Below are positions 1-26,133 of a stretch of DNA of 64,000 bases, one piece after another. Location: assembly GCF_011045215.1 (NCBI RefSeq), contig NZ_CP049201.1; one strand, given 5' to 3'. The DNA is from Escherichia coli. Its GTDB lineage: Bacteria; Pseudomonadota; Gammaproteobacteria; Enterobacterales; Enterobacteriaceae. A program made the translations under genes and the position numbers. The first letter of the stretch is position 1. Each line of letters starts with the position of its first letter. The notes below the pieces were generated by a model. The model was not told the DNA's origin and searched no databases. It was given only the letters and a program-made list of their open reading frames with translations.

Positions 1-9
1 ACACTCTTA

Positions 10-375
10 TCATTCGCCGCGATAGATACAACCAGCGGTGCAGGTTTCTTTTACCATCACCGCACTTAACAGCGGCACAACGGGTTTAACCTGATCCCAA
101 ATCCATTTTGCTAAAACTTCGCTAGTTGGGTTTTCCAGACCTGGAATATCATTGAGATAATGGTGATCGAGGCGCTCATAAGTTGGCTTAAACGCCGCTT
201 TTAGTTCAGCGAAATCGATAATCCAGCCCGTATGCGGATCGACTTCCCCGGTAATTTCCAGTCGCACCATAAAGGAATGCCCGTGCAGGCGACCACATTT
301 ATGCCCTTCCGGGACGTGTGGTAAGCGGTGAGCGGCTTCGAAGGTGAAATCTTTAAATAACGTGGTGGACATCAT
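10..375 (-). CDS. queD: 6-carboxy-5,6,7,8-tetrahydropterin synthase (queuosine biosynthesis)
   Basis: ORF 10..459 trimmed to the [10 protein letters not shown] start (121 aa); QueD/PTPS motifs (HGHSF, CxxxxxHGH); divergent from cysJ. Confidence 0.9.
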
Positions 376-690
376 AATTTCTCTACAGGACGATAAAACC
401 GCCGTAGAGTACCGGAAAGGCTGTTTTTTCGCATTATCTAAAACGACTTTGTTGCGCACAATCGCTGATTTATCTTAATGATTGGCTAAATTCATTTGTT
501 TTTCATTAGGTTGGTTAATCTATTTTGTTGTTAAAGACTATTGCTAAAACAGGTTAGTCGATTTGGTTATTAGTTATCGCTATCCCGTCTTTAATCCACA
601 CCGTTCACCCCGTTAACCTTACCTTCTCTTCTGTTTTATGGGCGCTGACAGGGCGCAGAAACAGCTTTGCTTACTGGAACATAACGACGC

Positions 691-2490
691 ATGACGACAC
701 AGGTCCCACCTTCCGCGTTGCTTCCGTTGAACCCGGAGCAACTGGCACGCCTTCAGGCGGCCACGACCGATTTAACTCCCACCCAGCTTGCCTGGGTTTC
801 TGGCTATTTCTGGGGCGTGCTCAATCAGCAGCCTGCTGCGCTTGCAGCGACGCCAGCGCCAGCCGCAGAAATGCCGGGTATAACTATTATCTCCGCCTCG
901 CAAACCGGCAATGCGCGCCGGGTTGCTGAAGCATTACGCGATGATTTATTGACGGCAAAACTGAACGTTAAGCTGGTGAACGCGGGCGACTATAAATTCA
1001 AACAAATCGCCAGCGAAAAACTGCTTATCGTGGTGACGTCAACGCAAGGAGAAGGGGAACCGCCGGAAGAAGCCGTCGCGCTGCATAAGTTCCTGTTCTC
1101 CAAAAAAGCGCCGAAGCTGGAAAACACCGCATTTGCCGTGTTTAGCCTCGGCGATAGCTCTTATGAATTTTTCTGTCAGTCCGGGAAAGATTTTGACAGC
1201 AAGCTGGCGGAACTGGGCGGTGAACGCCTGCTCGACCGTGTCGATGCCGACGTTGAATACCAGACCGCTGCCAGCGAGTGGCGCGCTCGCGTGGTTGATG
1301 CGCTTAAATCGCGTGCGCCTGTCGCGGCACCTTCGCAATCCGTCGCTACTGGCGTGGTAAATGAAATCCACACCAGCCCGTACAGCAAAGACTCGCCGCT
1401 GGTGGCGAGCCTCTCTGTTAACCAGAAAATTACCGGGCGTAACTCTGAAAAAGACGTTCGCCATATCGAAATTGACTTAGGTGACTCGGGCCTGCGTTAC
1501 CAGCCGGGTGACGCGCTGGGTGTCTGGTATCAGAACGATCCGGCACTGGTGAAAGAACTTGTCGAACTGCTGTGGCTGAAAGGCGATGAACCTGTCACCG
1601 TCGAGGGCAAAACGTTGCCTCTGAACGAAGCGCTACAGTGGCACTTCGAACTGACCGTCAACACCGCCAACATTGTTGAGAATTACGCCACGCTTACCCG
1701 CAGCGAAACACTGCTGCCGCTGGTGGGCGATAAAGCGAAGTTACAGCATTACGCCGCGACGACGCCGATTGTTGACATGGTGCGTTTCTCCCCGGCACAG
1801 CTTGATGCCGAAGCGCTAATTAATCTGCTGCGCCCGCTGACGCCGCGTCTCTATTCCATTGCCTCCTCGCAGGCGGAAGTCGAGAACGAAGTACACGTCA
1901 CCGTTGGTGTGGTGCGTTACGACGTGGAAGGCCGCGCCCGTGCCGGTGGTGCCTCCAGCTTCCTCGCTGACCGCGTGGAAGAAGAGGGCGAAGTCCGCGT
2001 ATTTATCGAACATAACGATAACTTCCGCCTACCAGCCAATCCAGAAACCCCGGTGATTATGATTGGCCCAGGCACCGGTATCGCGCCGTTCCGCGCCTTT
2101 ATGCAGCAACGTGCTGCCGATGAAGCACCGGGTAAAAACTGGCTGTTCTTTGGCAACCCGCATTTTACGGAAGATTTCCTCTACCAGGTGGAGTGGCAGC
2201 GCTACGTCAAAGAGGGCGTGCTGACACGTATCGATCTCGCCTGGTCGCGCGATCAAAAAGAAAAAGTTTACGTACAAGACAAACTACGCGAACAGGGCGC
2301 GGAGCTGTGGCGCTGGATCAATGACGGTGCCCACATTTATGTCTGCGGCGACGCTAATCGCATGGCGAAAGACGTTGAGCAGGCACTTCTGGAAGTGATT
2401 GCCGAATTTGGTGGCATGGACACCGAAGCGGCGGATGAATTTTTAAGTGAGCTGCGCGTAGAGCGCCGTTATCAGCGAGATGTCTACTAA
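691..2490 (+). CDS. cysJ: Sulfite reductase [NADPH] flavoprotein alpha subunit
   Basis: 599 aa; flavodoxin-like N-terminal and FAD/NADPH-binding C-terminal domains; first gene of cysJIH. Confidence 0.97.
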
Positions 2491-4202
2491 TGAGCGAAAA
2501 ACATCCAGGGCCTTTAGTGGTCGAAGGAAAACTGACAGACGCCGAGCGCATGAAGCTTGAAAGCAACTACCTGCGCGGCACCATTGCGGAAGATTTAAAC
2601 GACGGTCTGACCGGCGGCTTTAAGGGCGACAACTTCCTGCTGATCCGCTTCCACGGCATGTATCAGCAGGATGACCGCGACATCCGCGCCGAACGTGCTG
2701 AACAGAAGCTGGAGCCGCGCCATGCGATGCTGTTGCGCTGCCGTCTGCCGGGTGGAGTTATCACCACCAAACAGTGGCAGGCGATCGATAAATTTGCCGG
2801 TGAAAACACCATCTATGGCAGCATTCGCCTGACCAACCGCCAGACATTCCAGTTCCACGGCATTCTGAAAAAGAACGTCAAACCGGTGCACCAGATGCTG
2901 CACTCGGTCGGTCTTGATGCGCTGGCGACCGCTAACGACATGAACCGTAACGTACTCTGCACCTCGAACCCTTACGAGTCGCAGCTGCACGCAGAAGCGT
3001 ACGAGTGGGCGAAGAAAATCTCTGAACATCTGCTGCCTCGTACCCGCGCGTATGCGGAGATCTGGCTCGATCAGGAAAAAGTCGCCACCACTGATGAAGA
3101 ACCGATCCTCGGCCAGACCTACCTGCCGCGTAAATTCAAAACCACGGTAGTGATCCCGCCACAGAACGATATCGATCTGCACGCCAACGACATGAACTTC
3201 GTGGCGATCGCCGAAAACGGCAAGCTGGTGGGCTTTAACCTGTTGGTGGGCGGTGGGCTTTCCATCGAACACGGCAACAAGAAAACCTACGCCCGCACCG
3301 CGAGTGAGTTTGGCTATCTGCCGCTAGAGCATACGCTAGCGGTGGCGGAAGCCGTCGTGACAACTCAGCGTGACTGGGGTAACCGAACCGATCGTAAAAA
3401 TGCTAAAACCAAATACACGCTGGAGCGCGTGGGGGTTGAGACGTTTAAAGCGGAAGTGGAGCGTCGCGCGGGGATCAAATTTGAACCGATCCGTCCGTAT
3501 GAGTTCACCGGACGCGGAGATCGTATTGGCTGGGTTAAGGGCATTGATGATAACTGGCACCTGACGCTGTTTATCGAAAATGGTCGCATCCTTGATTATC
3601 CGGGGCGTCCGTTGAAAACCGGCCTGCTGGAGATCGCGAAGATCCACAAAGGTGATTTCCGCATTACGGCGAACCAGAATCTGATCATCGCCGGTGTGCC
3701 GGAAAGCGAGAAAGCGAAGATCGAGAAGATCGCCAAAGAGAGCGGGTTAATGAATGCCGTCACGCCGCAGCGTGAAAACTCAATGGCCTGCGTCTCGTTC
3801 CCGACTTGCCCGCTGGCGATGGCGGAAGCGGAGCGTTTCCTACCGTCTTTTATCGACAACATCGATAATTTAATGGCGAAACATGGTGTTAGCGATGAGC
3901 ATATCGTGATGCGTGTAACAGGCTGCCCGAACGGTTGTGGTCGCGCGATGCTGGCGGAAGTGGGCCTGGTGGGTAAAGCGCCGGGTCGCTACAACCTGCA
4001 TCTTGGCGGCAACCGTATTGGGACACGTATCCCACGGATGTATAAAGAAAACATCACCGAGCCGGAAATCCTGGCGTCGCTTGATGAACTGATAGGGCGC
4101 TGGGCGAAAGAGCGCGAAGCGGGTGAAGGCTTCGGCGACTTTACGGTGCGTGCGGGCATCATTCGCCCGGTGCTCGATCCGGCGCGCGATTTGTGGGATT
4201 AA
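2490..4202 (+). CDS. cysI: Sulfite reductase [NADPH] hemoprotein beta subunit
   Basis: 570 aa; siroheme/4Fe-4S sulfite reductase motifs (TGCPNGC); start overlaps the cysJ stop. Confidence 0.97.
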
Positions 4203-4207
4203 CCATC

Positions 4208-4255
4208 AGCCCGGTCTTGTAGGCCTGATAAGACGCGTGAGCGTCGCATCAGGCA
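4208..4255. repeat. REP-like palindromic unit between cysI and cysH
   Basis: Imperfect palindrome gcctgataagacgcg...cgcgtcgcatcaggc typical of enterobacterial REP elements; coordinates approximate. Confidence 0.6.
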
Positions 4256-4275
4256 AGGCAAACAGTGAGGAATCT

Positions 4276-5010
4276 ATGCCCAAACTCGATCTAAACGCCC
4301 TGAACGAACTGCCGAAGGTAGATCGCATTCTGGCGCTGGCAGAAACTAACGCCCAACTGGAAAAACTGGACGCTGAAGGCCGCGTAGCCTGGGCGCTGGA
4401 TAATCTGCCCGGTGAATATGTGCTTTCTTCCAGCTTCGGCATTCAGGCGGCGGTGAGCCTGCATCTGGTGAATCAGATTCGCCCGGATATTCCAGTGATC
4501 CTCACCGATACCGGTTACTTGTTCCCGGAAACCTACCGCTTTATTGACGAGTTAACGGACAAACTCAAGCTCAACCTGAAAGTGTACCGTGCTACCGAAA
4601 GCGCAGCCTGGCAGGAAGCACGCTACGGAAAACTGTGGGAGCAGGGCGTTGAAGGCATTGAAAAGTACAATGACATCAACAAAGTCGAACCGATGAACCG
4701 GGCGCTGAAAGAACTTAACGCGCAAACGTGGTTTGCTGGCCTGCGCCGTGAACAATCCGGCAGCCGCGCCAATTTACCGGTGCTGGCAATTCAGCGTGGC
4801 GTATTTAAAGTGCTGCCGATTATCGACTGGGATAACCGAACTATTTATCAGTACCTGCAAAAACATGGCCTGAAATATCACCCATTATGGGACGAAGGAT
4901 ATTTATCGGTGGGCGATACCCATACAACTCGTAAATGGGAACCCGGCATGGCGGAAGAAGAAACGCGTTTCTTTGGCTTAAAAAGGGAATGTGGGTTACA
5001 CGAAGGGTAA
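4276..5010 (+). CDS. cysH: Phosphoadenosine phosphosulfate (PAPS) reductase
   Basis: ORF 4123..5010 trimmed to the MPKLDLNAL start (244 aa); PAPS reductase family with C-terminal ECGLH motif; GAGG RBS upstream. Confidence 0.95.
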
Positions 5011-5028
5011 TTAATGCCGGATAAATTA

Positions 5029-5066
5029 AACGCCTCTGTCAGAAATGATGGGGGCGTTTTTATTTT
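5029..5066 (+). terminator. Putative rho-independent terminator downstream of cysH
   Basis: GC-rich inverted repeat (aaacgcc...ggcgttt) followed by a T-run; approximate. Confidence 0.4.
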
Positions 5067-5274
5067 GCGAGCAGCATTCCTGATTTTAAACGTGAACGCC
5101 GCTGGAAGAATTATCAGGTATAGAATGGCGTCGGGTGCTTGAGGCTGTCTGGCGTTAAGCATTCGCGAGGTTCCAGATGGACAAAAGCCCCAGGCGATAT
5201 TTCTATCAACCTGAGGCCAGCGTTCGAACCTAAGCAATTCGAATGTTAGTCTCTTCTTTGCAGGGAGGCAAGAC

Positions 5275-5427
5275 ATGCTGACAAAATATGCCCTTGTGGC
5301 AATCATCGTACTGTGTTGTACAGTACTGGGATTCACGCTGATGGTAGGCGACTCGTTGTGTGAGTTGAGTATCAGAGAACGTGGTATGGAGTTTAAGGCT
5401 GTTCTCGCTTACGAATCGAAGAAGTAG
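5275..5427 (+). CDS. hokX: Hok/Gef-family type I toxin (small membrane peptide)
   Basis: 50-aa ORF not in the track (below size cutoff): [50 protein letters not shown]; GGAGG RBS 6-10 nt upstream; hairpin downstream; symbol assigned from position in the cysH-cas3 intergenic region. Confidence 0.75.
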
Positions 5428-5459
5428 CCACCACGCGGGGGTAAAACCCCGCGTATTGA

Positions 5460-5619
5460 ATTGTGATGGTTTGGTCTCCTGCACCCTTTTTTAAATTTAT
5501 ATTTTTTATGTGAATATATTGTCTCTATTTATTATTATGAATTTCAAATGAAAATCATAAATTTATTCACAATATAAATGTTTTATTGGCTGATATATAT
5601 CACAGATAATTTTTAAAAT
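5460..5619 (+). promoter_or_regulatory. AT-rich region upstream of cas3 (likely cas3 promoter and nucleoid-protein silencing region)
   Basis: About 160 bp of very AT-rich sequence immediately 5' of cas3; no specific motifs mapped. Confidence 0.4.
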
Positions 5620-8319
5620 ATGCGTAAATATCCTTTAAGTTTACTGAAGGATAAAAATATTGTGACTTTCTTTGATTTCTGGGGAAAAACCCGACGCGAC
5701 GAGAAAGAAGGGGGTGACGACTATCACCTTCTTTGCTGGCATTCGCTGGATGTGGCCGCGATGGGCTATTTAATGGTTAAAAGAAATTGCTTCGGGCTGG
5801 CTGATTATTTTCGTCAATTAGGGATTTCTGACAAGGAACAGGCGGCTCAATTTTTCGCCTGGTTGTTGTGCTGGCACGATATTGGAAAATTTGCCCGCTC
5901 ATTTCAGCAACTTTACCTGCACCCACAACTCAAGGTTCCGGAAGGCGCAAGAAAGAATTACGAAAAGATCTCTCATTCAACGCTGGGCTACTGGTTGTGG
6001 CATCATTATTTAAGTGAATGCGAAGAATTGCTTCCTGCCTCTTCACTCTCTACTCGCAAACTTAAACGTGTAATAGCGATGTGGATGCCCATGACTACCG
6101 GGCATCATGGTCGGCCCCCTGACCGTATTGATGAACTGGATAATTTTCTGCCTGAAGACAAAGTTGCCGCGCGAGATTTTCTCCTTGAAATCAAGGCACT
6201 GTGTCCGCTCATAGAGATTCCCACATTCTGGGATAATGACGAGGGAGTTGAACTTTTAAAACAACTTTCCTGGTATATCTCTGCAACAGTCGTACTTGCA
6301 GACTGGACGGGTTCGTCAACGCGATTTTTTCCACGCGTCGCACACCCAATGGATATTAAAGATTACTGGCAGAAAACTTTAGTTCAGGCTCAAAACGCCT
6401 TAACCGTCTTTCCTCCAAAAGCAGAAACCGCACCTTTCACCGGAATTAATACGCTGTTTCCTTTTATTGAGCACCCGACACCATTACAGCAAAAGGTGCT
6501 GGATCTGGATATCAGCCAGCCAGGGCCACAGTTATTTATTCTGGAAGACGTGACTGGCGCAGGTAAAACAGAAGCGGCGCTTATCCTGGCGCACAGGTTG
6601 ATGGCTGCGAGGAAAGCACAGGGTTTGTTTTTTGGCCTGCCAACAATGGCAACGGCCAATGCCATGTACGATCGGCTGGTCAAAACCTGGCTTGCTTTCT
6701 TTTCGCCAGAATCCCGCCCCAGCCTGGTGCTGGCACACAGCGCCCGTACATTAATGGAACGCTTTAATGAATCACTCTGGTCCGGTGATTTAGTCGGGTC
6801 AGAAGAACCGGATGAACAAGCGTTCAGTCAAGGATGTGCAGCCTGGTTTGCCGACAGTAACAAGAAGGCTTTACTGGCTGAAATTGGCGTCGGCACGCTG
6901 GATCAGGCGATGATGGCAGTGATGCCGTTTAAACATAATAATCTGCGGCTTCTGGGGTTGAGTAACAAAATCCTGCTGGCTGATGAGATCCACGCCTGTG
7001 ACGCTTACATGTCGTACATTCTTGAAGGGTTGATTGAGCGACAGGTGCGTGGCGGAAACAGCGTCATTTTGCTTTCTGCTACGTTATCTCAACAGCAGCG
7101 CGACAAACTTGTCGCCGCCTTTGCGCGTGGCACAGAGGGCCAGCAAGAAGCTCCGTTCCTGGAAAAGGATGATTACCCCTGGCTGACGCATGTCACGAAA
7201 TCCGATGTGCATTCGCACCGGGTAGCGACGCGCAAAGACGTTGAGCGTAGCGTGAGCGTGGGTTGGCTTCATAGCGAACAAGAATGTATTGCGCGTATCG
7301 AATCAGCGGTAAGTCAGGGGAAATGCATCGCCTGGATCCGGAATTCTGTCGATGACGCTATTAAGGTTTATCGTCAGTTACTTGCCCGCGGCGTCATTCC
7401 TGCTTCCAGCCTTTCACTTTTTCATAGCCGCTTTGCTTTTAGCGATCGCCAGCGAATTGAAACGGAAACGCTGGCACGCTTTGGTAAAAATTGTAGTTTA
7501 AAAAGATCATCTCAAGTCATTGTTTGTACACAAGTAATTGAGCAAAGTGTGGATATTGACCTGGACGAAATGATCTCCGACCTGGCCCCCATTGATTTGC
7601 TGATCCAGCGAGCGGGGCGATTACAACGGCATATTCGCGATATTAATGGTCAGTTAAAGCGTGATGGAAAAGACGAGCGTTCCCCTCCTGAATTGCTGAT
7701 TCTGGCCCCCGTCTGGGACGACTCTCCGGGTGACGAATGGTTTGGCAGTGCGATGCGTAACAGCGCATATGTCTACCCCGATCATGGGCGAATCTGGCTG
7801 ACGCAGCGAGTATTGCGTGAGCAAGGCGCTATTCAGATGCCACACGCAGCCCGGCTTCTTATTGAATCCGTCTACGGTGAGGACGTGGTAATGCCGGAAG
7901 GATTTGCCCGCAGCGAGCAGGAGCAAGTGGGCAAATATTACTGCGATCGCGCAATGGCTAAAAAGTTTATGCTGAACTTCAGGCCCGGCTATGCCGCCAA
8001 TATCAACGATTACCTCCCGGAAAAGCTGTCGACACGTCTGGCTGAAGAGTCTGTTTCCCTGTGGCTGGCTACCTGTATTGACGGTGTGGTGAAGCCTTAT
8101 GCCAGCGGTGCTCACGCATGGGAAATGAGCGTTGCCAGAGTGCGTCGAAGCTGGTGGAAAAAACATCGGGATGAATTTTCTTTACTGGAAGGGGAAGCGT
8201 TCAGGCAGTGGTGTGTTGAACAACGGCAAGATCCGGAGATGGCAAACGTGATTTTAGTCACTGATGACGAAAGTTGCGGGTATTCGGCCAGGGAGGGATT
8301 GATTGGCAAGGTTGATTGA
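5620..8319 (+). CDS. cas3: Type I-E CRISPR-associated helicase/nuclease Cas3 (HD nuclease + SF2 helicase)
   Basis: 899 aa; N-terminal HD motifs (HLLCWHSLDVAA, WHDIGK), Walker A (GAGKTEAA) and DExH-like LADEIHA; start taken from the only upstream ATG, true start may be an internal GTG. Confidence 0.93.
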   Translation: MRKYPLSLLKDKNIVTFFDFWGKTRRDEKEGGDDYHLLCWHSLDVAAMGYLMVKRNCFGLADYFRQLGISDKEQAAQFFAWLLCWHDIGKFARSFQQLYLHPQLKVPEGARKNYEKISHSTLGYWLWHHYLSECEELLPASSLSTRKLKRVIAMWMPMTTGHHGRPPDRIDELDNFLPEDKVAARDFLLEIKALCPLIEIPTFWDNDEGVELLKQLSWYISATVVLADWTGSSTRFFPRVAHPMDIKDYWQKTLVQAQNALTVFPPKAETAPFTGINTLFPFIEHPTPLQQKVLDLDISQPGPQLFILEDVTGAGKTEAALILAHRLMAARKAQGLFFGLPTMATANAMYDRLVKTWLAFFSPESRPSLVLAHSARTLMERFNESLWSGDLVGSEEPDEQAFSQGCAAWFADSNKKALLAEIGVGTLDQAMMAVMPFKHNNLRLLGLSNKILLADEIHACDAYMSYILEGLIERQVRGGNSVILLSATLSQQQRDKLVAAFARGTEGQQEAPFLEKDDYPWLTHVTKSDVHSHRVATRKDVERSVSVGWLHSEQECIARIESAVSQGKCIAWIRNSVDDAIKVYRQLLARGVIPASSLSLFHSRFAFSDRQRIETETLARFGKNCSLKRSSQVIVCTQVIEQSVDIDLDEMISDLAPIDLLIQRAGRLQRHIRDINGQLKRDGKDERSPPELLILAPVWDDSPGDEWFGSAMRNSAYVYPDHGRIWLTQRVLREQGAIQMPHAARLLIESVYGEDVVMPEGFARSEQEQVGKYYCDRAMAKKFMLNFRPGYAANINDYLPEKLSTRLAEESVSLWLATCIDGVVKPYASGAHAWEMSVARVRRSWWKKHRDEFSLLEGEAFRQWCVEQRQDPEMANVILVTDDESCGYSAREGLIGKVD

Positions 8320-8408
8320 GATGCCTGCGACAGAGACTCTCTGAATAGTTGATACACCGAAAAGGATGGATAACCGACCTGGATGGTCTTTTTTACGAGA
8401 GGATGCGT

Positions 8409-9971
8409 ATGAACTTGTTTTCACTTCTGACAACCCCGTGGTTGCCCGTTCGTTTTAAAGACGGAACGACAGGCAAACTGGCGCCAGTCGATCTGGCTGA
8501 TGAAAATGTTGTCGATATCGCCGCGCCGCGAGCAGATTTACAAGGTGCGGCATGGCAGTTTTTGCTGGGGCTACTACAAACCAGCTTTGCGCCAAAAGAT
8601 CATCGTCGTTGGGATGATATCTGGGAAGACGGACTGGAAGCTGAAAAGCTAAGGGAAGCATTGCTGTCATTAGAACATGCTTTCCAGTTTGGCCCAGATT
8701 CCCCTTCATTTATGCAGGATTTTGAGGCGCTCACGGGAGATAAAGTTCAGGTCGCTTCGCTACTGCCTGATGTTCCCGGCGCTCAAACGACGAAGTTTAA
8801 TAAAGACCATTTTATCAAGCGTGGTGTAACGGAATATCTGTGCCCCCATTGTTTAGCATTGGCCTTGTTCTCTTTACAGTTGAATGCACCAGCGGGTGGC
8901 AAAGGCTATCGCACCGGTTTGCGCGGCGGTGGGCCGATGACCACTCTGATTGAATTACAGGAATATCAGGGCAATCAACAAACACCCTTATGGCGCAAAC
9001 TGTGGCTCAACGTGATGCCGCAGGATGAAGCCGACTTACCGCTACCCCAAAAATTTGACGATCTGGTTTTCCCCTGGCTTGGCCCGACGCGTACCAGCGA
9101 ACTGGCCGGTGCGGTGGTAACCGATGATCAGGTTAATAAACTCCAGGCGTACTGGGGAATGCCACGGCGTATTCGTATTGATTTTAATACCACCACAGTC
9201 GGCAACTGCGATATTTGCGGTGAGCAGAGCGACGCGCTTCTGAGCCTGATGACGACCAAAAATTACGGCGCTAACTATGCCATGTGGCAGCATCCCTTAA
9301 CGCCTTACCGTGTACCACTTAAAGAGGGCGGCGAGTTTTACTCAGTTAAACCACAACCGGGCGGTTTAATCTGGCGCGACTGGTTAGGCCTTATCGAAAC
9401 GGGGAAATCAGAAAACAATACGGAACTTCCCGCGCTGGTGGTGAAACTCTTTAATGCCAGCAGTCTGAAACAGGCAAAAGTGGGCCTGTGGGGATTTGGT
9501 TATGATTTTGACAACATGAAAGCGCGCTGTTGGTACGAGCACCATTTCCCGCTTCTGCTCAATAAAAAAGAAGGCCAGATACCGAAACTGCGGCTGGCTG
9601 CGCAAACGGCTTCACGGATTCTGAGTCTGTTACGGAGTGCATTGAAAGAAGCGTGGTTCTCCGATCCAAAAGGTGCACGGGGTGATTTCAGTTTTGTGGA
9701 TATCGACTTCTGGAACAAAACTCAGCATCGCTTCCTGAGGTTAGTGCGCCAAATTGAAGAAGGTCAGGATGCGGATGAATTACTCGGCAAATGGCAAAAG
9801 GAAATTTGGTTATTCGCACGTCAGGATTTTGACGAGCGTGTATTCACCAATCCTTATGAGCCCGTTGATTTGGAACGCGTCATGACCGCGCGCAAGAAAT
9901 ATTTTACAACATCGGCGGAGAAGCAAAGTGCTAAAGCCGCCAGGGAGAAAAAGCAGGAGGCTGCTGAATGA
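8409..9971 (+). CDS. casA: Cascade large subunit Cse1/Cas8e
   Basis: ORF 8349..9971 trimmed to MNLFSLLTTPWLPVR (520 aa), matching the Cse1 N-terminus pattern MNL...W.PVR; conserved GLRGGGPMTTL loop region; GAGAGG RBS. Confidence 0.9.
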   Translation: MNLFSLLTTPWLPVRFKDGTTGKLAPVDLADENVVDIAAPRADLQGAAWQFLLGLLQTSFAPKDHRRWDDIWEDGLEAEKLREALLSLEHAFQFGPDSPSFMQDFEALTGDKVQVASLLPDVPGAQTTKFNKDHFIKRGVTEYLCPHCLALALFSLQLNAPAGGKGYRTGLRGGGPMTTLIELQEYQGNQQTPLWRKLWLNVMPQDEADLPLPQKFDDLVFPWLGPTRTSELAGAVVTDDQVNKLQAYWGMPRRIRIDFNTTTVGNCDICGEQSDALLSLMTTKNYGANYAMWQHPLTPYRVPLKEGGEFYSVKPQPGGLIWRDWLGLIETGKSENNTELPALVVKLFNASSLKQAKVGLWGFGYDFDNMKARCWYEHHFPLLLNKKEGQIPKLRLAAQTASRILSLLRSALKEAWFSDPKGARGDFSFVDIDFWNKTQHRFLRLVRQIEEGQDADELLGKWQKEIWLFARQDFDERVFTNPYEPVDLERVMTARKKYFTTSAEKQSAKAAREKKQEAAE

Positions 9972-10504
9972 GTATTGTAAAAGAGGAGCACAAAGCCACG
10001 CTGCGCAAATGGCATGAGGAATTGCAGGAGAAACGCGGCGAACGTGCCAGTCTGCGGCGTAGTACGACGGTTAATGATGTTTGTCTGACGGATGGATTTC
10101 GCCTGTTTCTGAAGAACAGACAAATAAAGTGGCAGGATGAACCTGAATGGCGTATTACCGCACTGGCGCTGATAGCCGCACTTAGCGCTAATGTTAAAGC
10201 CATTGATGAACGGCTGCCTTTTGCTGCGCAGCTGGCGGCGGTAATGTCAAAGGGGCGTTTTACTCGCCTGTCGGCAGTAAAAACACCGGATGAATTACTG
10301 CGCCAGTTACGCCGCGCAGTCAGATTATTAAACGGTTCCGTTAATCTTGACTCTCTGGCAGAGGGTGTCTTCCGCTGGTGCCAGGAGAGCGACGATCTGC
10401 TCAATCATCACCGCCGTCATCAGCGGCCAACCGAATTTATCCGTATCCGCTGGGCGCTGGAATATTACCAGGCTGGCGACGCCGATAACGAACAAAATCA
10501 ATAA
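9968..10504 (+). CDS. casB: Cascade small subunit Cse2/Cas11
   Basis: 178 aa basic helical protein; ATG overlaps the cse1 stop (ATGA); position between cse1 and cas7. Confidence 0.85.
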   Translation: MSIVKEEHKATLRKWHEELQEKRGERASLRRSTTVNDVCLTDGFRLFLKNRQIKWQDEPEWRITALALIAALSANVKAIDERLPFAAQLAAVMSKGRFTRLSAVKTPDELLRQLRRAVRLLNGSVNLDSLAEGVFRWCQESDDLLNHHRRHQRPTEFIRIRWALEYYQAGDADNEQNQ

Positions 10505-10515
10505 AGGACTATCTC

Positions 10516-11571
10516 ATGACGACATTTATTCAGCTTCATTTGTTAACCGCTTACCCTGCAGCCAACCTTAACCGTGATGACACCGGAGCGCCGAAAACCG
10601 TGGTCCTGGGTGGAGCAACGCGACTGCGCGTTTCCTCGCAAAGTCTGAAACGTGCGTGGCGCACTTCTGCACTTTTTGAACAGGCACTGGCGGGCCATAT
10701 TGGTATTCGCAGTGGGCGTATTGCGCGTGAGGCGGCAACGATCCTGATTGAGAAAGGCATCGAAGAGAAAAAAGCCATCGAATGGGCGGCAAAAATTGCG
10801 GATTATCTTGGGAAAGCTAAAAACGACAAAAAACCAAAAGATCCGCTCACTAACGCCGAAACTGAACAATTAGTCCATATCAGCCCGGCAGAATTTGACG
10901 CCGTAAAAGCGCTGGCCCATCAACTGGCCGAAGAAAAGCGCGCGCCAAAAGAGGAAGATCTCGCTTTGTTACGTAAAGATCGCATGGCGGTAGATATCGC
11001 TATGTTTGGTCGTATGCTGGCGAATAAACCCGAATTTAATGTTGAAGCCGCCTGCCAGGTCGCGCATGCATTTGGTGTCAGTGAAACGATTGTCGAAGAT
11101 GATTTTTTCACCGCCGTTGATGATTTGCGCCAGGCTTCTGAAGATGCCGGTGCCGGGCATCTTGGTGAAACCGGATTCGGTTCTGCGCTGTTCTACACCT
11201 ATATCTGCATCGATAAAGATCTGCTGGTCGAAAACCTCGGCGGTGACGAAGCGTTAGCTAATCAGACCTTGCGCGCCTTTACGGAAGCCGCACTTAAAGT
11301 CTCCCCAACCGGCAAACAGAACAGCTTTGCCAGCCGTGCCTACGCCTCCTGGGCGCTGGCAGAAAAAGGGACTGAACAACCACGCTCTCTGGCGGCGGCT
11401 TTCTATGAACCCATTAATGGCACCCGGCAGTTAGATGTGGCGGTGCAGCGTATTACAACGCTTCGCGAAAATATGAATACGGTCTATGAACAGAAGACCG
11501 AATGCGCAAGCTTTGACGTGATGAACAAACAGGGAAGCATGAAGGACGTGCTGGACTTTATCTGCGCGTAA
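10516..11571 (+). CDS. casC: Cascade backbone subunit Cas7e
   Basis: 351 aa; Cas7e-like N-terminal region (LTAYPAANLNRDD...SSQSLKRAWR); third gene of the effector operon. Confidence 0.9.
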   Translation: MTTFIQLHLLTAYPAANLNRDDTGAPKTVVLGGATRLRVSSQSLKRAWRTSALFEQALAGHIGIRSGRIAREAATILIEKGIEEKKAIEWAAKIADYLGKAKNDKKPKDPLTNAETEQLVHISPAEFDAVKALAHQLAEEKRAPKEEDLALLRKDRMAVDIAMFGRMLANKPEFNVEAACQVAHAFGVSETIVEDDFFTAVDDLRQASEDAGAGHLGETGFGSALFYTYICIDKDLLVENLGGDEALANQTLRAFTEAALKVSPTGKQNSFASRAYASWALAEKGTEQPRSLAAAFYEPINGTRQLDVAVQRITTLRENMNTVYEQKTECASFDVMNKQGSMKDVLDFICA

Positions 11572-11581
11572 GGGGCGGCTA

Positions 11582-12328
11582 ATGAGCCAATATTTGATTT
11601 TTCAGCTTCATGGGCCAATGGCATCCTGGGGCGTCGATGCCCCCGGCGAAGTGCGTCATACCCATGAACTGCCTTCGCGCTCAGCATTGCTGGGGCTGCT
11701 GGCTGCCGGGGTAGGGATTCGGCGTGATGATACCGAACGATTAAACGCGTTTAACCGCCACTATTCACTGGTGGTTTGCGCCAGCCGTAACCCGCGCTGG
11801 GCACGGGATTATCACACGATCCAGATGCCAAAAGAGGTGCGTAAAGCGCGTTATTTCAGCCGTCGCGAAGAGTTGAGCGACCCTGATCTTCTGAGCGCGA
11901 TTATCTCCCGGCGCGACTACTACACCGACGCCTGGTGGATGGTGGCGGTGGCAACAACAGCCGATGCGCCTTACAGCCTCGAACAGTTGCAGGGCGGTTT
12001 ACGCCATCCAGTTTTTCCTCTTTATCTGGGGCGAAAAAGTCATCCGCTGGCATTACCACTTGCGCCGTTACTGCTCGAAGGCAACGCGTCTGATGTTTTA
12101 CGTAACGCATATCACCAGTATCAGGAGCATTTCCACGACCTGAAAATCGCACTCCCGAAACTTCAGGATGAATGCTGGTGGGAAGGGGAGCACGACGGCC
12201 TGGTCGCGAGCAAAATATTGCGCCGCCGGGATGTTCCTTTAAATCGTCAGCAATGGCTGTTTGGGGAACGCACCGTCAATCAGGGGCCGTGGCTCAGCAA
12301 GGAGGAACCATGTACCTCTCAAGAATAA
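11582..12328 (+). CDS. casD: Cascade subunit Cas5e
   Basis: 248 aa; N-terminus QLHGPMASWG...LPSRSALLGLLAAGVGIRRDD resembles Cas5e. Confidence 0.9.
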   Translation: MSQYLIFQLHGPMASWGVDAPGEVRHTHELPSRSALLGLLAAGVGIRRDDTERLNAFNRHYSLVVCASRNPRWARDYHTIQMPKEVRKARYFSRREELSDPDLLSAIISRRDYYTDAWWMVAVATTADAPYSLEQLQGGLRHPVFPLYLGRKSHPLALPLAPLLLEGNASDVLRNAYHQYQEHFHDLKIALPKLQDECWWEGEHDGLVASKILRRRDVPLNRQQWLFGERTVNQGPWLSKEEPCTSQE

Positions 12329-12956
12329 CCTTACATACCGGCCAGCTTTCGCCTGCGCAGTTGCTGCATCTGGTGGAGCGCGGGGAATATGTGATGCATC
12401 AGTGGCTGTGGGATCTCTTCCCTGGCGGCAAAGAAAGGCAATTTCTTTATCGTCGGGAAGAACTCCAGGGCGCGTTTCGCTTTTTTGTACTGTCGCAGGA
12501 ACGCCCGGCGGAAAGTGAAACGTTCACCATCGAATGCCGGTCATTTGTGCCCGAGCTGCGTACCGGACAACAACTTTGTTTCAACCTGCGGGCGAATCCA
12601 ACAATCTGTAAAGCGGGCAAGCGCCACGATCTGCTGATGGAGGCGAAACGGCAGGTGAGGGGGCAGGCGGAAGGAAGTGATGTCTGGTTGCATCAACAAC
12701 AGGCGGCGCTGGACTGGCTGGCAGCGCAGGGGGAGAGAAGCGGTTTTACACTGCTGGATACCTCGGTTGATGCCTACCGACAACAGCAACTGCGGCGGGA
12801 AAACTCCCGGCAACTGATCCAGTTCAGTAGCGTGGATTATACGGGGATGCTTACGGTCACCGATCCCGGGTTATTTCTGCAACGTCTCAGTCAGGGGTAT
12901 GGCAAAAGCCGCGCGTTCGGCTGTGGTCTGATGCTGATCAAACCCGGAGCAGAGGC

Positions 12957-12960
<4 letters not shown>
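12310..12960 (+). CDS. casE: Cas6e pre-crRNA endoribonuclease
   Basis: ORF 12172..12960 trimmed to MYLSRITLH (216 aa) preceded by an AAGGAGGA RBS; C-terminal glycine-rich GxGxxxxxGxG loop; overlaps the cas5 3' end. Confidence 0.9.
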
Positions 12961-14170
<1,210 letters not shown>

Positions 14171-14266
14171 GTTATGTGTTCTTTAAAAATAAGGAAATGT
14201 TTGAATTTAGTTGGTAGATTGTTGATGTGGAATAAATTTGTTTAAAAACAGATATGTATGCTTAGT
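14171..14266 (+). promoter_or_regulatory. CRISPR leader (AT-rich; array promoter and integration-proximal region)
   Basis: 96-bp AT-rich sequence between the cas2 stop and the first repeat. Confidence 0.8.
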
Positions 14267-14478
14267 GTGTTCCCCGCGCCAGCGGGGATAAACCGGTGCA
14301 TAAAAAATGATACCCCAGCGTTTCGTTGTGTTCCCCGCGCCAGCGGGGATAAACCGATTGAAATAGATCTCCCCGACATTAACGAACAGTGTTCCCCGCG
14401 CCAGCGGGGATAAACCGGGCGCACTGGATGCGATGATGGATATCACTTAGAATTCCCCGCCCCTGCGGTAGAACTCCC
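14267..14478 (+). CRISPR. Type I-E CRISPR array: 4 repeats (29 bp) and 3 spacers (32 bp)
   Basis: Repeat GTGTTCCCCGCGCCAGCGGGGATAAACCG at 14267-14295, 14328-14356 and 14389-14417; degenerate terminal repeat GAATTCCCCGCCCCTGCGGTAGAACTCCC at 14450-14478; spacers at 14296-14327, 14357-14388 and 14418-14449. Confidence 0.97.
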
Positions 14479-21862: not shown

Positions 21863-23224
<1,362 letters not shown>

Positions 23225-23363
23225 AACGTGAGGAAATACCTGGATTTTTCCTGGTTATTTTGCCGCAGGTCAGCGTATCGTGAACATCTTTTCCAGTGTT
23301 CAGTATGGTGCCTTGCACGGTAATTATGTCACTGGTTATTAACCAATTTTTCCTGGGGGATAA

Positions 23364-24551
23364 ATGAGCGCGGGAAGCCCAAAATTCACCGTTCGCCGCA
23401 TTGCGGCTTTGTCACTGGTTTCGCTATGGCTGGCAGGCTGTTCTGACACTTCAAATCCACCGGCACCGGTCAGCTCCGTTAATGGCAATGCGCCTGCAAA
23501 TACCAATTCTGGTATGTTGATTACGCCGCCGCCGAAAATGGGGACGACGTCTACAGCGCAGCAACCGCAAATTCAGCCGGTGCAGCAGCCACAAATTCAG
23601 GCCACTCAACAACCGCAAATTCAGCCGGTGCAGCAGCCACAAATTCAGGCCACTCAACAACCGCAAATCCAGCCAGTGCAGCCAGTAGCTCAGCAGCCGG
23701 TACAGATGGAAAACGGACGCATCGTCTATAACCGTCAGTATGGGAACATTCCGAAAGGCAGTTATAGCGGCAGTACCTATACCGTGAAAAAAGGCGACAC
23801 ACTTTTCTATATCGCCTGGATTACTGGCAACGATTTCCGTGACCTTGCTCAGCGCAACAATATTCAGGCGCCCTACGCGCTGAACGTTGGTCAGACCTTG
23901 CAGGTGGGTAATGCTTCCGGTACGCCAATCACTGGCGGAAATGCCATTACCCAGGCCGATGCAGCAGAGCAAGGAGTTGTGATCAAGCCTGCACAAAATT
24001 CCACCGTTGCTGTTGCGTCGCAACCGACAATTACGTATTCTGAGTCTTCGGGTGAACAGAGTGCTAACAAAATGTTGCCGAACAACAAGCCAACTGCGAC
24101 CACGGTCACAGCGCCTGTAACGGTACCAACAGCAAGCACAACCGAGCCGACTGTCAGCAGTACATCAACCAGTACGCCTATCTCCACCTGGCGCTGGCCG
24201 ACTGAGGGCAAAGTGATCGAAACCTTTGGCGCTTCTGAGGGGGGCAACAAGGGGATTGATATCGCAGGCAGCAAAGGACAGGCAATTATCGCGACCGCAG
24301 ATGGCCGCGTTGTTTATGCCGGTAACGCGCTGCGCGGCTACGGTAATCTGATTATCATCAAACATAATGATGATTACCTGAGTGCCTACGCCCATAACGA
24401 CACAATGCTGGTCCGGGAACAACAAGAAGTGAAGGCGGGGCAAAAAATAGCAACCATGGGTAGCACCGGAACCAGTTCAACACGCTTGCATTTTGAAATT
24501 CGTTACAAGGGGAAATCCGTAAACCCGCTGCGTTATTTGCCGCAGCGATAA
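23364..24551 (+). CDS. nlpD: Murein hydrolase activator lipoprotein NlpD (LysM + M23 domains)
   Basis: 395 aa; lipobox LAGC; Gln/Pro-rich repeats; C-terminal M23 peptidase-like domain; rpoS promoter expected within this gene. Confidence 0.95.
23559..23678 (+). repeat. In-frame tandem repeat tract in nlpD (five 24-bp units encoding [16 protein letters not shown])
   Basis: Direct repeats seen in the DNA, including a near-identical 48-bp duplication (23583-23630 vs 23631-23678). Confidence 0.85.
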
Positions 24552-24613
24552 ATCGGCGGAACCAGGCTTTTGCTTGAATGTTCCGTCAAGGGATCACGGG
24601 TAGGAGCCACCTT

Positions 24614-25606
24614 ATGAGTCAGAATACGCTGAAAGTTCATGATTTAAATGAAGATGCGGAATTTGATGAGAACGGAGTTGAGGTTTTTGACGAAAAGGCC
24701 TTAGTAGAAGAGGAACCCAGTGATAACGATTTGGCCGAAGAGGAACTGTTATCGCAGGGAGCCACACAGCGTGTGTTGGACGCGACTCAGCTTTACCTTG
24801 GTGAGATTGGTTATTCACCACTGTTAACGGCCGAAGAAGAAGTTTATTTTGCGCGTCGCGCACTGCGTGGAGATGTCGCCTCTCGCCGCCGGATGATCGA
24901 GAGTAACTTGCGTCTGGTGGTAAAAATTGCCCGCCGTTATGGCAATCGTGGTCTGGCGTTGCTGGACCTTATCGAAGAGGGCAACCTGGGGCTGATCCGC
25001 GCGGTAGAGAAGTTTGACCCGGAACGTGGTTTCCGCTTCTCAACATACGCAACCTGGTGGATTCGCCAGACGATTGAACGGGCGATTATGAACCAAACCC
25101 GTACTATTCGTTTGCCGATTCACATCGTAAAGGAGCTGAACGTTTACCTGCGAACCGCACGTGAGTTGTCCCATAAGCTGGACCATGAACCAAGTGCGGA
25201 AGAGATCGCAGAGCAACTGGATAAGCCAGTTGATGACGTCAGCCGTATGCTTCGTCTTAACGAGCGCATTACCTCGGTAGACACCCCGCTGGGTGGTGAT
25301 TCCGAAAAAGCGTTGCTGGACATCCTGGCCGATGAAAAAGAGAACGGTCCGGAAGATACCACGCAAGATGACGATATGAAGCAGAGCATCGTCAAATGGC
25401 TGTTCGAACTGAACGCCAAACAGCGTGAAGTACTGGCACGTCGATTCGGTTTGCTGGGGTACGAAGCGGCAACACTGGAAGATGTAGGTCGTGAAATTGG
25501 CCTCACCCGTGAACGTGTTCGCCAGATTCAGGTTGAAGGCCTGCGCCGTTTGCGCGAAATCCTGCAAACGCAGGGGCTGAATATCGAAGCGCTGTTCCGC
25601 GAATAA
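24614..25606 (+). CDS. rpoS: RNA polymerase sigma factor RpoS (sigma-38)
   Basis: ORF 24578..25606 trimmed to [11 protein letters not shown] (330 aa); full-length, no premature stop. Confidence 0.97.
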
Positions 25607-25725: not shown

Positions 25726-26133
25726 CTATGTGTTCATCATCTTGCGCACCAGCTGCACAAACAGCTCCTGCTCTTCTGCACTCAAACGCCCCAAAAATTC
25801 CTCATCCACGCTGTCACCAATCGGTATCGCCGCAGCAAGTATCTTTTCTCCTTCGGCAGTCAGCCAGACAAAGCGACGCCGCTTGTCAGCGGCATCATGT
25901 TCACGTCTGACTAAGCCACGATTCTCCATTCTTGCCAACATTTCTGCCAACGTTGCTTTGGTGCTGACTGCTGCTTCTATCAGTGCCACCTGTTCGATAC
26001 CAGGCTTATCAGCAATGGCGCGCATCACCGCATACTGTGGTTTGGTCAGGTCAGGTAACTCGTGCTGCCAGCGAGCCGTGTGCTGCTGAAAAAGCTGTCG
26101 TAACTGATGGAACGCTTTATTTCGTAACGCCAT
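25726..26133 (-). CDS. MarR/SlyA-family transcriptional regulator
   Basis: 135 aa winged-helix regulator; divergently oriented to the downstream decarboxylase operon. Confidence 0.85.
   Translation of the reverse strand: MALRNKAFHQLRQLFQQHTARWQHELPDLTKPQYAVMRAIADKPGIEQVALIEAAVSTKATLAEMLARMENRGLVRREHDAADKRRRFVWLTAEGEKILAAAIPIGDSVDEEFLGRLSAEEQELFVQLVRKMMNT

Follow-up and report, generated by a model that had tools for sequence, protein, structure and literature searches.

A low-variability coding minisatellite in the N-terminal linker of Escherichia coli NlpD

NlpD of E. coli K-12 (379 aa, UniProt NLPD_ECOLI) is a lipoprotein with a LysM domain and a degenerate LytM domain, which activates the amidase AmiC. 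In a 64-kb stretch of E. coli DNA (64,000 nucleotides, hereafter called the window), we encountered an nlpD gene that encodes a longer protein and carries a tandem array of five 24-bp units. Is this array a repeat whose copy number really varies in the species, how would the five-unit form have arisen, and does a change of its length matter, either for NlpD or for rpoS, the gene that follows?

The nlpD gene and its repeat tract

The gene order in the window is pcm-nlpD-rpoS, both in the list of open reading frames and in the annotated syntenic region of E. coli. The translated 395-aa frame begins with a signal peptide ending in an LWLAGC lipobox with Cys26, a residue that is invariant in an alignment of 34 homologues. 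In the Pfam search, a LysM domain (46.8 bits, with a cut-off of 20.9) was followed by a C-terminal M23/LytM domain (113.6 bits, with a cut-off of 28.7). An open reading frame of this length, with a lipobox, LysM and M23, located between pcm and rpoS, is therefore nlpD, and the same 395-aa protein is already listed as NlpD in NCBI nr. Outside the tract it is identical to K-12 NlpD, with the same gene context, lipobox, LysM and M23, and because of this identity the degenerate LytM site and the activation of AmiC can be carried over: the window protein is predicted to be an AmiC activator with a non-catalytic LytM site. It differs from K-12 NlpD by 16 additional residues (48 bp), five octapeptides instead of three, and a tether of 112 rather than 96 residues. 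NlpD of the K-12 derivative NEB5-alpha (L091, 379 aa) equals the window protein minus one 16-residue block. The first-pass annotation, which took the K-12 protein to be about 16 residues shorter, was thus exact in this respect (395 versus 379 aa).

Lengths given for NlpD also depend on the start codon. RefSeq/PGAP begins the gene at a TTG, codon 16 of our frame (window 23409), and UniProt at the ATG (window 23364), so that a three-unit nlpD measures 1,095 bp from the TTG (L006, 24215-25309; L091, 1046-2140) versus 1,140 bp, or 379 aa, from the ATG. The choice of start therefore creates a 15-aa length gap between sources, regardless of the repeat. We find the ATG more plausible, since the TTG start drops the positively charged K7/R11/R12 part of the signal peptide.

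Direct reading and Tandem Repeats Finder both confirmed that the tract consists of five 24-bp units with a near-perfect 48-bp duplication, as initially proposed. The units are in frame and encode the octapeptide QQPQIQ(PV/AT). With a period of 24, the program reported positions 23554-23682 (5.4 copies, 72% match), and with a period of 48, positions 23562-23682 (2.5 copies, 97% match, no indels, score 228); no other tandem repeat in the 64-kb window reached a score of 80. When the tract was shifted by 48 nt against itself, 69 of 72 bases matched, with an exact run of 59 nt, which is far beyond chance. Removal of positions 23607-23654 restores the structure found in the three-unit alleles L006 and L091-L093; the register of these extra 48 bp is conventional, as the duplicated block has no unique placement. 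The tract had been assigned to the linker between LysM and M23, and this needs to be corrected: it occupies residues 66-105, N-terminal of the LysM domain that Pfam places at residues 139-181. The opposite strand also has open reading frames of 83 and 190 aa over the tract, which we set aside as unsupported side effects of the repeat. The features of the locus are listed in Table 1.

Table 1. Features of nlpD, its repeat tract and rpoS in the window (positions in window coordinates, or the place of a unit in the tract).
Feature	Position	Strand	Details
nlpD CDS, murein hydrolase activator lipoprotein	23364..24551	+	395 aa + stop; ORF list, Pfam, E. coli annotation
Signal peptide with lipobox LAGC	23364..23441	+	Cys26 codon 23439-23441; read from translation
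N-terminal linker, lipid anchor to LysM	23442..23777	+	aa 27-138
Repeat tract, five 24-bp units, A1-B-A2/A1 hybrid-B-A2	23559..23678	+	aa 66-105; direct reading, Tandem Repeats Finder
Unit A1, CAGCAACCGCAAATTCAGCCGGTG	first of five	+	
Unit B, CAGCAGCCACAAATTCAGGCCACT	second and fourth of five	+	
A2/A1 hybrid unit, CAACAACCGCAAATTCAGCCGGTG	third of five	+	
Unit A2, CAACAACCGCAAATCCAGCCAGTG	fifth of five	+	
Extra 48 bp relative to the common three-unit allele	23607..23654	+	hybrid A unit and second B unit
Degenerate repeat tail QPVAQQPVQ	23679..23705	+	aa 106-114; array extended into the tail by Tandem Repeats Finder
LysM domain	23778..23906	+	aa 139-181; PF01476, E 2.9e-12
Peptidase_M23 (LytM-type) domain	24246..24527	+	aa 295-388; PF01551, E 5e-33
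Approximate major rpoS promoter inside nlpD	24011..24047	+	TTGCGT and TATTCT hexamers just upstream of start site
rpoS CDS, intact	24614..25606	+	330 aa; ATG at 24614

The window as a whole looks like E. coli DNA: it shows synteny with strain EC1515 and, over 24 kb, 98.3% identity to the best complete genome. Its cysJIH-cas region (window 1-14357) is 96.2% identical to EC1515, versus about 98-99% for the neighbouring DNA. The window contains a chromosomal hok/sok locus, with a sok antitoxin RNA match at 5133-5290 on the plus strand (Rfam RF01794, 111.7 bits); in EC1515, a Hok/Gef family gene occupies this place between cysH and cas3. Alignment with EC1515 puts a type I-E CRISPR array (14266-14478) between the cas and iap regions; it is very short, with three good 30-nt repeats and one degenerate repeat at 61-nt spacing; the EC1515 array is longer (456 bp). 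Downstream of rpoS, the polymorphic rpoS-mutS intergenic region (from 25726-26133, minus strand, to about 29.3 kb) contains genes for a MarR-family regulator and a hydroxyarylic acid decarboxylase, a type also seen in O157:H7, O55:H7 and EC1515.

Copy number across E. coli

The first-pass annotation had suggested that the tract is prone to changes of copy number. Our search for nlpD in RefSeq complete E. coli genomes found the gene in 5,421 of 5,426, and in every match listed, sampled across the ranking, it spanned 1,140 bp, 48 bp less than in the window. A 301-nt probe was covered to at least 80% in 5,356 of the 5,426 genomes, with the 48-bp-shorter span in every match listed, and a three-unit probe aligned ungapped in at least 5,063 of them (E <= 1e-40). 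Some 290 complete genomes reached the coverage threshold with the 301-nt probe and failed the strict three-unit probe, and further variants are possible there; identity in the tract region was only 90-95% in 30 complete-genome records and 80-90% in one. A junction probe for a one-unit allele matched 61 of the 5,426 genomes (1.1%), among them O157:H7 TW14359, EC4115, SS17 and SS52 as well as unrelated isolates from humans, poultry, panda and water. Junction probes for two units (B-A2) and four units (A1-A1-B-A2) had no match in complete genomes, and these alleles come from draft or metagenome data only. Alleles with five or more units were found in none of the 5,426 complete genomes with either of two probes. 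The first of these, a 72-nt megablast probe, could miss alleles with GCT/GTA codons, in which no 28-nt exact word is left, and a 161-nt blastn probe was used for this reason. According to local controls, the five-unit probes would detect all six known five-unit alleles, that of the window included, and three-unit alleles fell below the cut-off.

The same range was explored at the protein level by exact look-up in a collection of 15 billion proteins, with synthetic variants otherwise identical to K-12 NlpD as queries. The three-unit protein (379 aa) was found on at least 1000 contigs, the one-unit protein (363 aa) on 160, and the five-unit protein (395 aa) on 6, the longest of which measures 5.41 Mb. 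Two-unit proteins (371 aa) occurred as AT-PV on 25 contigs and as PV-PV on a single contig, named Shigella flexneri, while a four-unit protein (PV-PV-AT-PV, 387 aa) was present on 3 contigs. Seven- and nine-unit forms (411 and 427 aa) were found on no contig of this collection. Proteins with one, two, three, four and five units thus exist, which bears out the suggested copy-number variability and disproves an identical count in all alleles. The units are tandem and in frame, their number varies within the species, and the changes are recurrent; the nlpD tract is a real variable-number tandem repeat (VNTR) of low variability, and the window allele is among its rarer variants. Our literature searches turned up no account of a tandem-repeat or 48-bp polymorphism in E. 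coli nlpD.

Many O157:H7 genomes carry the one-unit allele, including NC_013008.1 (TW14359), NC_011353.1 (EC4115), SS17 and SS52, while other O157:H7 strains, for example Balcarce_24.2 and TR01, have kept three units, with flanks 1 nt apart in 2.7 kb. The one-unit allele may offer a simple way to mark an O157:H7 sublineage.

Short-read assemblers can miscount tandem repeats, and one might ask whether assembly error produced the extra 48 bp, the more so as the 5,426 complete genomes contain no five-unit allele. We consider this extremely improbable. By our reasoning, a three-unit allele, with just an 11-bp exact repeat at 48-bp spacing, should not assemble as five units. Moreover, there are six independent records, in which lineage-specific variants have been copied into both repeats, and one five-unit record lies on the 5.41-Mb contig.

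Gain and loss of repeat units

The identical 395-aa protein is encoded in five independent NCBI draft assemblies, none of whose loci is identical to the window. Over 5.2 kb, these loci differ by 36-50 nt from the window and by 17-54 nt from one another, and downstream of rpoS they fall into two different gene contexts. In three of them (L001, L003 and L005) the rpoS-mutS region next to the allele is of the ygbN (GntP) type, unlike in the window. Within each five-unit allele, both copies share the synonymous variants of that lineage. The duplicated block has GTG and GCC in the window, GTG and GCT in L001, and GTA and GCT in L003 and L005; L004 has GTA and GCT, with GTA in A2 too. In L002, B plus A2 is duplicated exactly and the junction is different, so that there are two junction types among the five-unit alleles. 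Across 2,668 nt of flanking haplotype, with the tract excluded, L004 (five units) and PK8566 (one unit) showed no difference, TW14359 (one unit) and O157:H7 Balcarce (three units) differed at one position, and L001 (five units) and K-12 (three units) at three. The presence of a lineage's own variants in both copies, together with like flanks around unlike counts, calls for several independent events. On this evidence, expansions and contractions of the nlpD tract recur independently.

The units themselves carry a trace of these events. The middle A unit of the window has the start of A2 (CAA) and the end of A1 (ATT CAG CCG GTG), and each of the four sequenced one-unit alleles is an A1/A2 hybrid of the opposite kind, with an A1-like start and an A2-like end. 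Units A1 and A2 have in common an 11-bp block, CAACCGCAAAT, at a distance of 48 bp, and the crossover falls within this block in the window allele and, reciprocally, in all four one-unit alleles. Most copy-number events go through this microhomology, giving reciprocal hybrid units. Hybrid junction units of this type are the expected mark of misalignment between short direct repeats, a well-established process that takes place by replication slippage or by unequal exchange between sister strands.

We therefore propose the following model. The starting state would be the normal E. coli allele with three units, A1-B-A2. The A1 and A2 units, 48 bp apart, would misalign in replication or in sister-strand exchange, with a crossover inside the shared 11-bp block. 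One product would be a 48-bp duplication, leading to five units with an A2/A1 hybrid as in the window, and the reciprocal product would be a 48-bp deletion that leaves a single A1/A2 hybrid unit. In the five-unit product, the tether between Cys26 and LysM would grow from 96 to 112 residues, with both domains (LysM and M23), the frame, and the promoter and leader of rpoS left intact. The exact repeat amounts to 11 nt in the three-unit allele and to 59 nt after expansion, and a five-unit allele should revert or change easily; a one-unit allele would have no repeat left for misalignment. We suggest that five-unit alleles are rarer than one-unit alleles (0 versus 61 complete genomes; 6 versus 160 contigs) because the former revert readily and the latter cannot slip. 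We infer slippage as the mechanism, its independence of RecA and the absence of a phenotype; replication slippage and unequal recombination would leave traces that are inseparable from sequence alone.

In bacterial envelope proteins, coding minisatellites (intragenic VNTRs) change the length of the protein by misalignment at direct repeats. The nlpD tract resembles them in its head-to-tail units in multiples of three, its copy-number alleles within a species, and its recurrent changes with hybrid junctions. It differs in its low variability, since about 99% of complete genomes are estimated to have three units, and in that it is not known to be linked to antigenic variation. The rarity of events would follow from the three-unit state having only 11 bp of exact homology. 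Simple-sequence contingency loci, which produce phase variation through slipped-strand mispairing, share with nlpD the misalignment at repeats, the same general mutational process. By contrast, the nlpD units are 24 or 48 bp long, always in frame, not part of a promoter spacer and not an on/off switch; a phase-variable contingency locus is ruled out, as there is neither a frameshift nor a change of promoter spacing. The nlpD tract is an ordinary coding minisatellite, a fresh instance of a well-known kind of variation, and it is probably near-neutral. Taken together, we put at roughly 85% the reading that an in-frame minisatellite in the disordered NlpD tether underwent, by A1/A2 misalignment, a rare and near-neutral expansion that left rpoS untouched.

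Relation to rpoS and to linker function

The proximity of nlpD to rpoS raises the question of whether the indel alters rpoS expression, since nlpD carries regulatory DNA of rpoS. The major rpoS promoter is located in nlpD, and the rpoS 5' UTR measures 567 nt (PMC10372455); the location of the promoter within nlpD was also described in Salmonella work (PMC3391293), and both reports agree with what the first-pass annotation had stated. A scan for sigma-70 consensus promoters in 23150-24700 called none, and the promoter position given here therefore rests on the published 567-nt leader. By arithmetic, the start site lies at about 24047, 567 nt upstream of the ATG, which corresponds to nlpD gene position 684. 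The tract ends at 23678, 369 bp upstream of this computed start site, outside the promoter and outside the leader, and is included only in read-through transcripts from nlpD promoters. The further expectation that indels in the tract would be close to rpoS regulatory sequence was consequently not supported, as the changes occur 369 bp upstream, in frame, and in multiples of 24 bp.

Altered rpoS expression is thus highly improbable as an explanation of what the indel does, even though the promoter is inside nlpD and the read-through transcripts contain the tract. A change in frame brings no polarity, and rpoS itself is intact, with 330 aa. A related case is nlpD of Salmonella Typhimurium UK-1, where a 12-bp in-frame deletion was judged by the authors to be outside the rpoS promoter region (PMC3391293). 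Like the E. coli change, it is a strain-specific in-frame nlpD indel, albeit in another species and of another size (12 bp versus 48 bp). By position, an effect of the tract on rpoS is unlikely.

A separate question is whether the number of units matters for NlpD. The N-terminal linker is rich in Gln and Pro (25 Q and 18 P among 112 residues), and both NlpD linkers, the first of which contains the tract, were predicted to be disordered (Tsang et al., 2017; PMC5533458). An AlphaFold2 model built from a 34-sequence alignment had a mean pLDDT of 38, with even M23 below 50, and is too poor to serve as evidence of disorder; before residue 114, this low-confidence model has no secondary structure except a short helix at residues 10-13. 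Among 80 species representatives of the Enterobacteriaceae, the linker differs in both length and sequence, with four octapeptide units in E. albertii, three in E. whittamii, and degenerate PQIQPVQ...QPVQ tracts in most other genera. In E. albertii NBRC 107761 (L007), NlpD has four QQPQIQxx units and 386 aa, and in Citrobacter sp. 18056 (L065), with 394 aa, the linker has a different expansion made of PVQTA-type repeats. This variability across genera fits a tolerant linker.

It could nevertheless be argued that copy number is adaptive, with tether length or the QQPQIQ count tuning the reach of NlpD to septal peptidoglycan and AmiC, or its binding to a partner, in which case the one- and five-unit alleles would be selected variants. 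At least 90% of 34 Enterobacteriaceae homologues share P68, Q69, Q71 and P72 in a PQIQP core that is conserved across genera, and the variation inside the E. coli tract is all synonymous; together, these two observations suggest that the tract may be more than a spacer. The "reach" of outer-membrane NlpD was raised as a possible control point by Tsang et al., who also saw weak midcell enrichment of a linker-only NlpD fusion (PMC5533458). In addition, the one-unit allele is present in many O157:H7 genomes, although these are probably related. Against adaptation, natural E. coli isolates have tethers of 80, 96 or 112 residues, the one- and five-unit alleles are rare (1.1% and 0% of complete genomes) and scattered, and the two are found on identical haplotypes, which fits mutation pressure better than directional selection. 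We therefore regard adaptive copy number as unlikely. A more specific version, in which QQPQIQ(PV/AT) is a short linear motif for septal recruitment of NlpD or its restraint at the outer membrane, strikes us as quite improbable; if it were true, avidity or reach would be graded across the natural alleles with one, three and five units, and the timing of daughter-cell separation would change accordingly. Our preferred reading remains that of a tolerated change, and the length difference is most likely near-neutral.

The importance of these findings is modest. For annotation, the repeat explains differences in NlpD length between strains without loss of function, and the one-unit allele may serve as a lineage marker in some O157:H7 strains. 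They also advise caution in the reading of nlpD indels, which should be taken as rpoS regulatory changes only if they lie near or downstream of gene position ~684. For the biology of E. coli, they mean that a housekeeping gene of cell division carries a real length polymorphism, present at low frequency, whose mutational mechanism can be read from the repeat units themselves.
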